Below, piece by piece: positions 5,405-10,626 of a DNA stretch of 10,721 nucleotides. Position 1 is the first letter of the stretch, and each line of letters begins with the position of its first letter. The notes below the pieces were generated by a model. That model was given only the letters and a program-made list of their open reading frames with translations, was not told the origin of the DNA and ran no database searches. The stretch is taken from the IMG/VR virus record IMGVR_UViG_2563366908_000002; one strand, 5' to 3'. The stretch comes from a virus. Its lineage: Duplodnaviria; Heunggongvirae; Uroviricota; Caudoviricetes. The position numbers were made by a program, and so were the translations under genes.

Positions 5405-5815
5405 ATGGCTCAGGCTGCCATTTTTAAAGAAATATTCGATCAAGTGCGTAAAGATTTAAACTGTGAATTATTTTATTCTGAGCTAAAACGTCACAATATC
5501 TCACTTTATATTTACTATTTAGCCACAGATAATATTCACATTGTGTTAGAAAACGACAACATAGTGTTAGTAAAAGGACTCAAAAAGGTTGTAAATGTTA
5601 AATTCTCCAGAAACAAACATCTTATAGAGACCTCCTATAATAAGTTGAAATCAAAAGAAATCACATTTCAACAATACAGGGAAAATCTTGCTAAAGCAGG
5701 AGTTTTCCGATGGGTTACAAATATCCAGGAACACCAAAGATATTACTATGCCTTTGATAACTCATTACTATTTACTGAAAGCATCCAGAAAACTACACAG
5801 ATCTTACCACGCTAA
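5405..5815 (+). CDS. ydfO: DUF1398-family protein, YdfO-like
   Basis: Track ORF 5390..5815; preferred start is the ATG at 5405 with GGAAGG 6 nt upstream (136 aa). Matches the size and position of YdfO between nohA and gnsB in K-12 Qin, recalled from memory. Confidence 0.6.
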
Positions 5816-5920
5816 ACCATAACGTCCGGCTTCTCTCACTCCTGAGCCGGACTGCATTGGTTTAATAAAAACCATCAACAATTGTGATTTAGATATTCGG
5901 AACCATTCAAATATAACAAA

Positions 5921-5940
5921 ACCCCGTAAAAACGAGGTTT
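5921..5940 (-). terminator. weak terminator-like hairpin downstream of the GnsB-like gene
   Basis: Minus strand cctcg-ttttta-cgggg (one G-U wobble) followed by TTTTGTT. Confidence 0.3.
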
Positions 5941-5966
5941 ATGGATAAATTTTATTATTGAATACA

Positions 5967-6140
5967 TCAGATTAAATTAATCTTGACATCATAGCTTTCA
6001 AGACCCGTCATTTTTTCCCGTGCGGTAAACTGAATACTGGTAACTTCTTTCCCGGTCTTTTTCTTAAGTTCAATAATTTTTTTTGTTATATATTCAGAAA
6101 TATCTGCTTCTGCTTTTGTTTTTAAGTTTTCAATATTCAT
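5967..6140 (-). CDS. gnsB: GnsA/GnsB-family protein (57 aa), not in the ORF track
   Basis: Hand translation gives MNIENLKTKAEADISEYITKKIIELKKKTGKEVTSIQFTAREKMTGLESYDVKINLI, very close to E. coli GnsA/GnsB as recalled (MNIEELKKQAE...FTAREKMTGLESYDVKIKIM). AGAGGAA precedes the start; an extra in-frame ATG lies 3 nt upstream at 6143. Confidence 0.75.
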   Translation of the reverse strand: MNIENLKTKAEADISEYITKKIIELKKKTGKEVTSIQFTAREKMTGLESYDVKINLI

Positions 6141-6311
6141 CATTTCCTCTTTTAGTCTGTTATGACTTTCCAGTTACACAGTAAGTCGATTATATGGTGC
6201 AAACGTGTAAAAGATAAGATGAAACATCGCAATAATCAACATACGATAGTCTAAATTTTACACAAACAGACAAAGAGAATTTTCCTGAATTATCAATACA
6301 ATAGCATCAAA

Positions 6312-6542
6312 TCAACTCAAGAGCCTTATTGCTGCTTCCAGAATTTCTTCTGAAGTAACATGTCGATCCGCGGCTACATAAATGACTTTATGATCTCCGG
6401 TCAGAGATGGAAACCCTGCGGCCATTACAGTAAGGTGTGTTTTTTCGCCATTTGGATATTCACGCATGATGGTGTTAACTCCAGTCATCGCTGGCACTAC
6501 CACTGCTGGTTCAGAGTTAAAAAAAACTATGATTTTTTTCAT
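6312..6542 (-). CDS. small protein (76 aa), possibly YmcE/YnfN-family cold-shock-associated partner of Gns
   Basis: Track ORF 6312..6584; the 6584 start would overlap a terminator T-tract, so the ATG at 6542 (MKKIIVFFNSEP...) is preferred. Sits directly upstream of the gnsB-like gene, like ymcE-gnsA and ynfN-gnsB in K-12. Family assignment is from memory. Confidence 0.5.
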   Translation of the reverse strand: MKKIIVFFNSEPAVVVPAMTGVNTIMREYPNGEKTHLTVMAAGFPSLTGDHKVIYVAADRHVTSEEILEAAIRLLS

Positions 6543-6590
6543 GATGTTACCGTAGTATGTGAGTATCCATCGAATAGATACCAAGCAAAA

Positions 6591-6609
6591 AAGCTCCCGA
6601 AGGAGCCTT
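6591..6609 (-). terminator. Rho-independent terminator-like hairpin, possibly bidirectional
   Basis: gctcc-cgaa-ggagc stem-loop; on the minus strand it is followed immediately by TTTTTTGC. About 200 nt downstream of the cspI stop. Confidence 0.5.
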
Positions 6610-6813
6610 CATTTTCACTTTTTTAAATCCAACGACAGACGGCTGGCATTTAAGTATTGTGAAATATTATCAAATGTAATCATCATTGATTTACAAAAGA
6701 TACATTTTGCCCCGAAAGGATTCATGTCAGAAACATCAAAAGATGATGTTCTATACTGGGAACCATGACAACACGGGCATCTAAAGTGAATATGGTTTGT
6801 AATATTGTCTACC

Positions 6814-7026
6814 TCAAAGCGCCACTACATGAACAGCGGCAGGACCTTTAGGTCCGTTCTCAATACCAAATTCAACTTCCTGATTCTCAGTTAATGTTTT
6901 GAAATCGTTGCTCTGAATTGCTGAGAAATGGACAAACACATCTTTGCTGCCATCTTTCGGCGTGATGAAACCAAAACCTTTTTCAGGGTTAAACCATTTC
7001 ACTAAACCAGTCATTTTGTTAGACAT
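6814..7026 (-). CDS. cspI: cold-shock protein CspI (CspA family)
   Basis: 70 aa beginning [38 protein letters not shown] with RNP1/RNP2 motifs; matches E. coli CspI as recalled. AAGG ribosome-binding site upstream of the ATG. Confidence 0.93.
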
Positions 7027-7176
7027 AATTATTACCTTTTGAAGAAATTAGCCCTTGGGCAGAATGGTCCGAAAAAAAATATCAGAGAGAAAAACCAACA
7101 AGGAAATCTCAAGAGGTACAAATAATAAAATTATAACAATGACTGCTTCAGATAAATTTGTAACAAACCAGAACAC

Positions 7177-9501: not shown

Positions 9502-9960
9502 TTACTTACGGCCCGTAAACGGGCTGCCCGGATAGGGAATCGATAACTGCTCTCCCATTTTATCCTCTTCAAGCTGGTGCTTTATGTAATCCTGTATCTT
9601 CGCCGTGTTCTTACCCACTGTATCGACGTAGTACCCTCTGCACCAGAACTCCCTGTTCCTGTATTTGAATTTCAAATCACCAAACTGCTCGTAAAGCATC
9701 AGACTGCTTTTCCCTTTCAGATATCCCATAAACCCGGATACGCTCATTTTAGGCGGGATCTCCACAAGCATATGGATATGATCTGCACAGCATTCAGCTT
9801 CCAGAATCCGTACGCTTTTCCACTCACACAGCTTTCTCAAAATACTGCCTATTGCTCTACGCTTCTCTCTGTAGAACACCTGTCTTCGGTATTTTGGCGC
9901 AAAAACTATGTGATATTTACAGTTCCATCGGGTGTGCGCTAAGCTCTTTTCGTTCCCCAT
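9502..9960 (-). CDS. tnpA: IS200 transposase TnpA (Y1 HUH transposase)
   Basis: MGNEKSLAHTRWNCKYHIVFAPKYRR ... HIHMLVEIPPKMSVSGFMGYLKGKSS ... YYVDTVGKNTAKIQDYIKHQLEEDK; near-identical to Salmonella/E. coli IS200 TnpA as recalled. GGGGG precedes the ATG at 9960. The track ORF extends 17 codons further upstream. Confidence 0.95.
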   Translation of the reverse strand: MGNEKSLAHTRWNCKYHIVFAPKYRRQVFYREKRRAIGSILRKLCEWKSVRILEAECCADHIHMLVEIPPKMSVSGFMGYLKGKSSLMLYEQFGDLKFKYRNREFWCRGYYVDTVGKNTAKIQDYIKHQLEEDKMGEQLSIPYPGSPFTGRK

Positions 9961-10070
9961 TGGGACCCCCTTTTGATTTCTTGTTTGACACTTGCAGTTG
10001 CCAGACCGCAAGGTGTTTTAACAAATCAAAAGGGGTTTTAATAACTGGCTCAAAGCTGAAAGCTTTCCGG

Positions 10071-10093
10071 AACCCCCAGCCTAGCTGGGGGTT
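10071..10093. repeat. perfect palindrome in the IS200 left end
   Basis: aacccccagc-cta-gctgggggtt, a 10-bp perfect stem. Candidate subterminal hairpin of the kind IS200/IS605 transposases recognise on single-stranded DNA. Confidence 0.6.
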
Positions 10094-10410: not shown

Positions 10411-10626
10411 TTAATCAGTAATGATGACATTTGCTGCTGCAGGACCTTTAGCACCACTCTCTATAGAGAAGGTAACCTTTTGACCTTCAAATAAGGTTCG
10501 ATAATTATCATTCTGAATCGCAGAAAAATGCACAAACACATCTTTACTACCATCAACAGGAGAAATAAAGCCGAAACCTTTATCAGCGTTAAACCATTTT
10601 ACTAAACCAGTCATTTTATTTGACAT
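10411..10626 (-). CDS. cspB: cold-shock protein CspB (CspA family)
   Basis: 71 aa: [71 protein letters not shown]; matches E. coli CspB as recalled. The 5' leader runs off the window end. Confidence 0.93.

Follow-up and report, generated by a model that had tools for sequence, protein, structure and literature searches.

Layout of the cassette

Positions 5967–6542 of the window (the whole stretch of viral DNA analysed, 10,721 nucleotides) hold ynfN and gnsB, the last two genes of cspI–ynfQ–ynfR–ynfN–gnsB, a well-known accessory cassette of Qin-type lambdoid prophages. The region is ordinary and already known, all five genes being present in RefSeq, with ynfN at 76 residues; its sole unusual point is that ynfN is full-length here, whereas it is frameshifted in the K-12 reference. 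An initial annotation, made from the sequence alone, had described a prophage cluster with cspI and cspB, and both genes are found (6814–7026 and 10411–10626, respectively), each with a match to the Rfam cspA thermoregulator.

Flanking the cassette are lysis genes on one side and terminase genes on the other. The late region of lambdoid phages carries ‘moron’ cassettes, such as bor/lom-type accessory genes, between the lysis and packaging genes. The cassette of the window resembles these in its site between Rz and the terminase, in apparently having its own promoter and terminators, and in that its genes are counted as accessory genes of the LF82 prophage Tritos, for which YnfN, CspI and CspB are so listed (PMC9928086); it differs in its cargo of cold-shock-related genes (csp, a YmcF-like gene, ynfN and gns). 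It is most likely a cold-shock accessory (‘moron’) cassette. Temperate phages have the same 1-kb stretch, and in one of them, Tritos, the cassette is identical. Of 5426 complete E. coli genomes, 2150 contain the stretch, many with 100% identity, and strains LF82 and ATCC 25922 are among those with the identical region; E. coli annotation of the identical region reads ynfN / ynfQ or ymcF / gnsB / ynfR. No PADLOC defence-system model matched GnsB, YnfN or YnfQ.

With the Qin cryptic prophage of K-12 (b1552, b4724, b4749, b1551 and b1550) the window shares the gene order and strand of the entire cassette. CspI, YnfQ and GnsB are 100% identical, as are residues 26–76 of YnfN, and YnfR is one residue apart (I versus V). 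With K-12 YdfO, the neighbouring DUF1398 protein shares just 77% identity, and the prophage of the window, unlike Qin, retains terminase and portal genes and has an IS200-family insertion near cspB.

The cspI unit and its terminator

Heading the cassette on the minus strand, on which all features described below also lie, is the cold-shock protein gene cspI. A cspA-type thermoregulator spans its 5′ untranslated and coding regions (6787–7172; Rfam RF01766, 112.8 bits, E 7.5e-29). The second gene of the unit, ynfQ (6615–6803), encodes a YmcF-like CxxC small protein (Pfam PF23641, E 7e-32), and directly after its stop codon is an intrinsic terminator (6585–6610), detected by scan and folding, whose hairpin was also noticed upstream of ynfN in the initial annotation. 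Its minus-strand sequence is AAGGCTCC-TTCG-GGAGC and then T6 (approximately 6610–6585), with the hairpin core placed by the scan at 6593–6606, and a 46-nt segment containing it folds at −14.5 kcal/mol. Overlapping the hairpin is ynfR (6547–6612), a 21-residue ORF annotated in RefSeq; beyond the E. coli Qin type it is shortened or missing.

The terminator is conserved. Hairpin and T run are kept in 15 of 16 loci, and in the remaining one (L025) the hairpin is kept with a degraded T run; one locus (L028) carries a compensatory U–A to C–G change, and others have G–U intermediates. Between the terminator and ynfN lie about 70 nt, in which a scan of the minus strand found no promoter.

An intact 76-residue YnfN

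Starting at an ATG inside a 90-residue, TTG-started entry of the ORF list, ynfN (6312–6542) encodes 76 residues. The product is identical to the RefSeq ‘protein YnfN’ of strain 118UI (WP_000720962.1), where the feature table also gives the gene as 231 nt, and its C-terminal 51 residues (26–76) are 100% identical to K-12 YnfN (b1551). It matches phrog_3425 over 76 of 76 positions (E 7e-54), and dN/dS against orthologues is 0.09–0.20 over the full frame. Homologues of 75–76 residues keep K3, F7, F8 and N9, with D59/R60 and E66/I67 likewise invariant or nearly so; two family motifs, an N-terminal (V/I)FFN strand and a C-terminal DR..(S/T)..E(I/V) helix, are present here and extend to distant members. 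A profile searched against 1.84 billion representative proteins returned just 45 clusters, with full-length members of about 70–92 residues, mostly 72–80.

The AlphaFold2 model (pLDDT 88) has five strands and one helix. A profile searched against the sequences of solved structures gave only noise (E 0.77 or worse). YnfN is predicted, with confidence, to adopt a fold without a known relative. Of the five predicted strands, three are formed by residues 2–28, modelled with pLDDT above 90; the 25 residues absent from K-12 YnfN hold these three strands.

Located in codons 6–9 (V-F-F-N) is a run of eight T residues (6519–6526; A8 on the plus strand). Side-by-side comparison shows T7 in K-12, which frameshifts the N-terminus, so that the YnfN annotated there consists of the last 51 residues only. 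With an 81-nt query, the T8 version was found exactly in 1045 E. coli records and the T7 version exactly in 417 of 1479 records. The 76-residue gene of the window is the intact, ancestral allele and the K-12 gene a 51-residue remnant left by a 1-nt deletion in the T8 run, so the full length given to this neighbour of gnsB in the initial annotation holds. Programmed phase variation at the run was considered and rejected: other lineages have T6, T7 or an interrupted run, and 7 of the 11 T7 records among the matches listed are K-12 or laboratory strains.

That the first 25 codons might instead be a chance extension of a true 51-residue product, as in K-12, is a reading to which we give next to no credence. 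The annotation of just 51 residues in K-12 and phage Tritos would fit it, as would the existence of a PHROG family built on the 51-residue form (phrog_4911). No part of the family is better conserved than the N-terminal MKK-VFFN segment, and this holds down to about 35% identity; the low dN/dS covers the whole frame, the confidently modelled N-terminal strands belong to the same region, and K-12 is apart by a single homopolymer T. On the strength of the dN/dS, the conserved VFFN and the pLDDT, the 76-residue ORF is not a chance ORF.

gnsB and the region upstream of it

At the end of the cassette is gnsB (5967–6140; phrog_2301). The initial annotation had placed its 57-residue product in the Gns family, and it proves to be GnsB itself, with 100% identity to K-12 GnsB over 57 residues and a match to Pfam PF08178 (GnsAB_toxin) over profile positions 1–54 of 54 (E 3e-35, 120.3 bits against a cut-off of 27). 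Its genomic setting is that of K-12, with the same neighbours, ynfN and a DUF1398 gene, and its dN/dS is 0.05–0.22. The ORF list gives a form of 58 residues (5967–6143, minus strand, MMNIENL...), whereas the 57-residue form starts at the second ATG (6140). The ribosome-binding site AGAGG (6150–6146), whose GAGG is invariant across the gns-locus alignments, is separated by 5 nt from the 6140 ATG and by just 2 nt from the 6143 ATG, which makes the 57-residue start the likely one. Downstream of gnsB, scanning and folding placed an intrinsic terminator-like hairpin, AAACCTCGT-TTTT-ACGGGGTTT followed by a T-rich tail (5919–5940).

The crystal structure of GnsA, reportedly determined by Wei and colleagues in 2015, is said to be a helical-hairpin homodimer. 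GnsB is 65% identical to GnsA and matches the sequences of the GnsA crystal structures 4XO1/4XO2 at E 5e-20; by analogy, it would form a small helical-hairpin dimer. Abundant GnsB would move the membrane lipids towards unsaturated fatty acids: according to papers citing Sugai 2001, overexpression of the identical K-12 protein increases unsaturated fatty acids, and fabA6(Ts) and the secG null mutation are suppressed. These fatty acids also increase when gnsA is overexpressed; plasmids carrying gnsA or gnsB rescue growth in several studies, the lipid effects of Gns are strongest at low temperature (PMC10607373), and overexpression of gnsA and gnsB raises persister counts and lowers ATP (bioRxiv 10.1101/310961).

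Separating ynfN from gnsB is a spacer of 171 nt, with no overlap between the genes. Within it is a promoter-like block (6205–6239) composed of TTGATT (6239–6234), a gap of 17 nt and TATCTT (6216–6211); in the Escherichia Qin type it is followed by a perfect TATAAT (6194–6189). Alignments between locus types show that, besides the ribosome-binding site, this block alone aligns among gns loci with ynfN, with a ymcE-like segment and with neither. It agrees with the consensus at 8 of 12 positions, and its hexamers line up imperfectly between locus types. No consensus-grade sigma-70 promoter was found in 6141–6311 by a scan with a threshold of 9 of 12 positions, which is why the block was missed. 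We infer that it functions as a promoter. A search of the gns leader in 14 loci for conserved RNA structure, such as a thermometer, gave three trivial pairs only and no covariation.

Comparison with the cspG–ymcF–ymcE–gnsA locus

The K-12 locus cspG–ymcF–ymcE–gnsA has the same layout of csp, a YmcF-like gene, an intrinsic terminator, the promoter-like block, a ribosome-binding site and gns, and its DNA aligns with that of the window at 74% identity over csp plus ymcF and at 73% over gns. It differs in that ynfN is absent; in its place is a spacer of approximately 195 nt, which has been read as a 76-residue ORF, ymcE. This ORF overlaps the end of ymcF, the terminator, the promoter-like block and the start of gnsA. 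The same hairpin is translated at both loci, as RLPRGAFF in YmcE and as KAPSGAFL in the YnfR of the window, and by position the 5′ part of ymcE corresponds to the segment comprising ynfR and the terminator, not to ynfN.

YnfN is not a homologue of YmcE, judged by sequence comparison, and their shared length of 76 residues is a coincidence. BLASTP of the 76-residue YnfN against K-12 YmcE gave no local alignment at E ≤ 100. YnfN matched neither Pfam PF15939 (YmcE_antitoxin; 188.9 bits for the K-12 YmcE control) nor any other Pfam family, nor NCBIfam NF007379 (187 bits for the same control), its sole NCBIfam match being an unrelated one of 11 bits against a cut-off of 340. That ymcE and ynfN are diverged versions of one gene was likewise rejected, as the DNA segments between ymcF/ynfQ and gns at the two loci do not align. 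Only half of the earlier label ‘YmcE/YnfN-like’ is therefore retained, the YnfN half; when the two proteins were aligned with the K-12 proteins as the annotation had proposed, GnsB found both GnsB and GnsA, YnfN found its namesake, and YmcE had no counterpart.

The ymcE frame itself is poorly kept. Of eight other genomes of the Escherichia/Shigella lineage in which gnsA is intact, six have the frame broken or without its start codon, and its dN/dS, derived from few substitutions, is about 0.8–0.9. We lean towards the view that the ‘YmcE antitoxin’ is an ORF that happens to span a terminator and the gns promoter and leader, rather than a conserved protein.

Distribution of ynfN and gns

Species-representative genomes supplied 26 gns loci, and in every one gns is preceded by csp and a YmcF-like gene, the latter being fragmented in two degraded loci (L039 and L040). 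Lying between these genes and gns is ynfN in 14 loci, a ymcE-like segment in 11 and neither in one. Most of the ynfN loci sampled are also accompanied by csp and a YmcF-like gene. Five loci (L010–L014) have csp, a truncated ymcF-like segment and ynfN without gns; phage PHB10 has csp and ynfN without a YmcF-like gene or gns, and plasmid-borne relatives of YnfN have neither csp nor gns nearby. The 14 species-level loci (of 26) that have ynfN keep it next to gns and in the same orientation, which leaves room for some functional link between the two.

A proposed model of two separately controlled units

Published transcriptomes place ynfN with cspI, and gnsB with gnsA. AZT induces cspI, ynfQ and ynfN approximately 6-fold, with a dependence on SspA of 38- to 51-fold (PMC11228462); in long-term stationary phase the profiles of cspI and ynfN are almost the same (PMC7406224), and tagged YnfR protein is induced by cold shock (PMC6001520). 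The main text and main-text tables of PMC11228462, PMC7406224 and PMC9928086 make no mention of gnsB, which is grouped with gnsA in persister RNA-seq (bioRxiv 10.1101/310961).

Taken as a whole, the locus is probably best explained as a Qin-type cassette with an intact ynfN, whose product is unrelated to YmcE, and with two separately controlled units rather than a toxin–antitoxin pair. The first unit would begin with the cspI promoter and a cold-sensing leader of the cspA type, continue with cspI and ynfQ, and end at the conserved intrinsic terminator within ynfR. Placed just behind this terminator and having no promoter of its own, ynfN would be produced only when polymerase reads through, for example, when cells meet cold shock or replication stress or are in long-term stationary phase. 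Read-through may be aided by ribosomes, either those completing ynfQ or those that cross the hairpin while translating ynfR, or by antitermination by CspA-family proteins. Such proteins are known to have antitermination activity; a Csp role at the ynfQ/ynfR terminator, which could follow, extrapolates from this general knowledge. In the second unit, gnsB would be served by a conserved promoter-like block, a ribosome-binding site and a terminator of its own. Thus ynfN is probably expressed by read-through past the terminator behind cspI–ynfQ, and gnsB separately; the read-through and the separate gnsB promoter are both deduced from the sequence and the published gene lists. YnfN would be a small protein of five strands and one helix, from an orphan family on mobile elements.

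A single long cold-shock operon is the strongest competitor, though an unlikely one. Here gnsB, like ynfN, would be transcribed by read-through from the cspI promoter, YnfN and GnsB would be co-induced during cold adaptation without forming a toxin–antitoxin pair, and the conserved block upstream of gns would be something else, such as a protein-binding or RNA-processing site. The five genes do lie on one strand with strong terminator-like sites only after ynfQ and gnsB, csp and the YmcF-like gene are constant upstream of gns, and the low-temperature peak of the Gns lipid effects would fit, as would the lack of a consensus-grade promoter in the spacer. Against this, the block (TTGATTATTG...TATCTT or TATAAC) has the layout of a promoter and is the sole intergenic sequence conserved across locus types, gnsB co-varies with gnsA instead of appearing in the main text of the three papers in which cspI and ynfN do, and the gns leader has no conserved RNA structure.

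A toxin–antitoxin-like pair, in which the 76-residue YnfN would restrain GnsB after the manner proposed for YmcE and GnsA, appears to us very improbable. The initial annotation drew this analogy, and the proposal is in the literature: ymcE–gnsA is given as a type II pair in some papers, as ‘predicted’. Like type II modules such as RelBE and MazEF, ynfN and gnsB are small same-strand neighbours on a mobile element, and one of the two families is labelled a toxin, Pfam and NCBI calling Gns an ‘addiction module toxin’; their adjacency in just over half of the gns loci and the persister and ATP effects of overexpression also speak for a pair. Against a pair, the genes are neither overlapping nor tightly coupled, the 171-nt gap containing the promoter-like block, and ynfN is preceded by a terminator; YnfN has no antitoxin fold that can be recognised, DNA-binding or other; and the two are not constant companions, as 12 of 26 gns loci lack ynfN and ynfN also occurs without gns. 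They fall in different published expression lists. YnfN is truncated in K-12 and in the 417 T7 records, with GnsB unchanged in K-12, the strain in which gnsB was compared. The supposed toxin acts as a multicopy suppressor and often makes cells grow better, its overexpression giving rescue rather than killing in several studies. YnfN is unrelated to YmcE, and ymcE–gnsA is itself a weak precedent, the ymcE frame being so often disrupted. The analogy is contradicted by these features, namely, the separability of the genes, the spacer, the differing expression lists, the K-12 truncation and the broken ymcE ORFs. A softer version, in which YnfN made on terminator read-through in cold shock or deep stationary phase would be a conditional partner tuning the lipid effect of GnsB, a separable, stress-gated regulator–effector pair rather than a classical toxin–antitoxin module, seems to us a similarly slim prospect.

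Implications

Nothing has to be added to the genome annotation of the region. The YnfN of K-12 is a frameshifted remnant of 51 residues in which the best-conserved motif of the family is missing, together with three of the five strands predicted; work done with K-12 ynfN, clones from knockout and overexpression libraries included, probably probes a non-functional fragment. If ymcE is merely an ORF spanning other elements, the database labels ‘GnsAB_toxin’ and ‘YmcE_antitoxin’ are misnomers. On comparative grounds there is only a weak argument for calling the Gns family toxins of toxin–antitoxin systems, with the ymcE ORF unconserved and neither ynfN nor ymcE a constant companion of gns, so that counting gnsB as an ‘addiction module toxin’ in surveys of prophages or toxin–antitoxin systems is likely to be misleading.

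A catalogued cold-associated cassette

The window covers a segment of a lambdoid prophage. In order of decreasing coordinates, on the minus strand unless marked (+), it carries cspB, an IS200-family transposase gene, ynfU (+), holin, DUF1327, lysozyme and Rz (DUF2514); after Rz come cspI, ynfQ, ynfR, ynfN, gnsB, a DUF1398 gene (+) and a ybcW-like gene, followed by a DUF1441 gene, large terminase and portal. The 57-aa ORF at 5967–6140 (minus strand) is indeed a Gns gene, 100% identical to K-12 GnsB and spanned over its whole length by a match to Pfam PF08178. Its neighbour, ynfN (6312–6542, minus strand), encodes 76 aa, the last 51 of them identical to K-12 YnfN, in agreement with the full-length partner proposed by the initial annotation. 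The proposed cold-associated cluster is also borne out: cspI and cspB lie in the same prophage. cspI has a cspA-type thermoregulator (6787–7172, Rfam).

These ORF identities and existing annotations make the feature one that is already catalogued. The 1 kb at 5800–6800 is present in 2150 of 5426 complete E. coli genomes (at least 99% identity in 1500 records), annotated as ynfN, ynfR, ynfQ or ymcF, and gnsB; the 231-nt (76-aa) ynfN is already in RefSeq, strain 118UI being one case. Of the known systems, the K-12 Qin segment comes closest, and the cassette differs from it only in a T run and one ynfR codon. Temperate phage Tritos has an identical cassette, and mEp460, 2H10 and others have close variants.

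At 9502–10093, the IS200-family Y1 transposase gene (Pfam PF01797) adjoins an Rfam STnc490 small RNA match (9970–10093); this insertion between ynfU and cspB is absent there from K-12 and strain 118UI. The annotated start codon of ynfQ (6615–6803) in RefSeq and K-12 is not ATG, GTG or TTG, with translation beginning with I (ITNHIHF...), so that ORF listing gives only a shorter, 36-aa ATG-started ORF (6615–6725).

A frameshift truncates ynfN in K-12

The two ynfN alleles differ by a single T in a homopolymer at codons 6–9: the window reads GTTTTTTTTAAC (T8; A8 on the plus strand at 6519–6526), and K-12 has T7 (K-12 ynfN locus L002, 4123–4202). An 81-nt T8 probe matched 1045 E. coli records exactly and its T7 version 417 of 1479 records; among the matches listed, 7 of 11 T7 records are K-12 or laboratory strains. 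Orthologue lengths, a profile search, dN/dS and an AlphaFold2 model show that, as judged from comparison and prediction, the 76-aa protein is the functional, ancestral form. Orthologues (52–76% identity) are 75–76 aa long and keep K3, F7, F8 and N9. Searched against 1.84 billion representative proteins, the profile recovered only 45 clusters, whose full-length members of ~70–92 aa (mostly 72–80) share an MKK-(V/I)FFN start. The dN/dS over the whole frame is 0.09–0.20. The model (pLDDT 88) has five strands followed by a C-terminal helix, and predicted strands 1–3 (residues 2–28) lie within or border the part missing from K-12. The 51-aa K-12 gene (b1551) is thus a frameshifted remnant, produced by a T8-to-T7 slip; its product lacks VFFN, the most conserved motif of the family, along with three predicted strands.

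The YnfN family is small and part of the accessory gene content of mobile elements. Further members, at L010 3037–3264, L013 725–949 and L044 2501–2728 (comparison loci), comprise extra paralogues that some genomes carry near the csp–ynfN unit (35% and 55% identity) and a plasmid-borne one, which adjoins a DUF551 gene and traI (TraI relaxase) and has neither csp nor gns in its vicinity. In Citrobacter/Enterobacteriaceae prophages with a csp–ymcF–ynfN–gns cassette, an unannotated 76-aa gene without a Pfam match lies 3′ of the DUF2514 (Rz) gene (L004 2125–2355; also L005–L009); tblastn with YnfN did not match this gene. Cassettes on contigs assigned to a Veillonella parvula MAG (L016) and a Mucilaginibacter MAG (L032) encode proteins 100% identical to those of the E. 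coli Qin-type and cspG–gnsA loci, and are most likely binning contamination.

YnfN is distinct from YmcE

The initial annotation had also likened the 76-aa protein to YmcE, a link that sequence comparison does not bear out. BLASTP of YnfN against YmcE, both 76 aa, gave no alignment, and YmcE models (Pfam, NCBIfam) matched K-12 YmcE but not the window protein. Between the cspG–ymcF–ymcE–gnsA DNA and the window, alignment is confined to csp and ymcF, and to gns and 18 nt of its leader. Finer alignment of the spacers reveals three shared elements: an intrinsic terminator immediately past the ymcF/ynfQ stop codon, then, farther downstream, a block TTGATTATTG...(TATCTT or TATAAC), and an AGAGG ribosome-binding site. 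The K-12 ymcE ORF crosses all three. As the same hairpin is translated as RLPRGAFF in YmcE and KAPSGAFL in YnfR, it is ynfR, not ynfN, that corresponds in position to the 5′ end of ymcE.

ynfR (6547–6612) is largely this hairpin read as codons. In other lineages the ORF is truncated (as in L018) or absent, or in Citrobacter loci absent or in other frames, so the peptide is probably not what functions here and may be incidental to the RNA element.

Terminators and a model of expression

The hairpin noted upstream of ynfN is present, lying 3 nt past the ynfQ stop codon and followed by T6. Hairpin and T run are kept in 15 of 16 loci, with a compensatory U-A to C-G change in L028 and G-U intermediates in others. 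A promoter scan of the hairpin-to-ynfN stretch found no promoter-like site. ynfN would be expressed from the cspI promoter by read-through of the ynfQ terminator, which is consistent with two observations: tagged YnfR, encoded across the hairpin, is cold-induced (PMC6001520), and ynfN co-varies with cspI. In published tables, ynfN tracks cspI and ynfQ under AZT treatment, with matching SspA dependence (PMC11228462), and follows cspI during long-term stationary phase (cspI 2.61/5.82/3.76/2.01, ynfN 2.01/5.59/3.92/2.16; PMC7406224); the accessory genes of LF82 prophage Tritos include YnfN, CspI and CspB (PMC9928086).

Ribosomes could promote read-through as they terminate on ynfQ or translate ynfR through the hairpin 5′ arm. 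CspA-family proteins have established antitermination activity, and may promote it too. gnsB is probably transcribed from the block at 6239–6205, as the conservation of this block suggests, and has its own terminator (5940–5919, terminator scan). GnsB would have its known multicopy effect of modulating how much unsaturated fatty acid the cell contains.

Evidence against a toxin–antitoxin pairing

A toxin–antitoxin reading of ynfN–gnsB takes ymcE–gnsA as its precedent, given as a type II pair in literature citing Wei et al. 2015 and termed 'predicted' in another paper. Against this reading, plasmids carrying gnsA or gnsB rescue growth in several settings (PMC10607373 among the sources), and PMC10607373 explicitly calls the mechanism of the lipid effect unknown. 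The comparative evidence argues against extending the pairing to ynfN–gnsB, and the analogy does not hold. The genes are separable. Surveying one genome per species recovered 26 gns loci, all with csp and a ymcF-like gene upstream; 14 contain ynfN, 11 a ymcE-like segment and one neither. Conversely, ynfN is found without gns in L010–L014, together with csp and a ymcF-like segment that is truncated, and phage PHB10 has csp and ynfN without a ymcF-like gene or gns. The genes lie 171 nt apart, with the promoter-like block in the gap, and K-12 gnsB is unchanged despite the truncated ynfN. They also appear in different expression lists: gnsB is listed alongside gnsA in a persister RNA-seq study (bioRxiv 10.1101/310961) and goes unmentioned in the main text of PMC11228462, PMC7406224 and PMC9928086.

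The ymcE–gnsA precedent itself is shaky on comparative grounds. Among eight further genomes of the Escherichia/Shigella lineage in which gnsA is intact (K-12 reference L003 3348–3578), the ymcE frame is broken by a frameshift or stop in four (E. sp. E1V33, E. whittamii, E. ruysiae and E. coli SCPM-O-B-8794) and its ATG lost in two (E. albertii and MOD1-EC7003); disrupted copies were compared in L030, L031, L034, L035, L036 and L038. In the non-overlapping part, ymcE dN/dS is ~0.8–0.9, from only 3–13 substitutions, against 0.05–0.22 for gns. The ORF overlies the ymcF terminator, the promoter-like block and the gnsA ribosome-binding site, and its conservation looks nucleotide-level rather than protein-level. 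Two points merit the attention of curators: a frameshift has reduced ynfN to a remnant in K-12, and the ymcE 'antitoxin' ORF is not conserved and sits over regulatory DNA.
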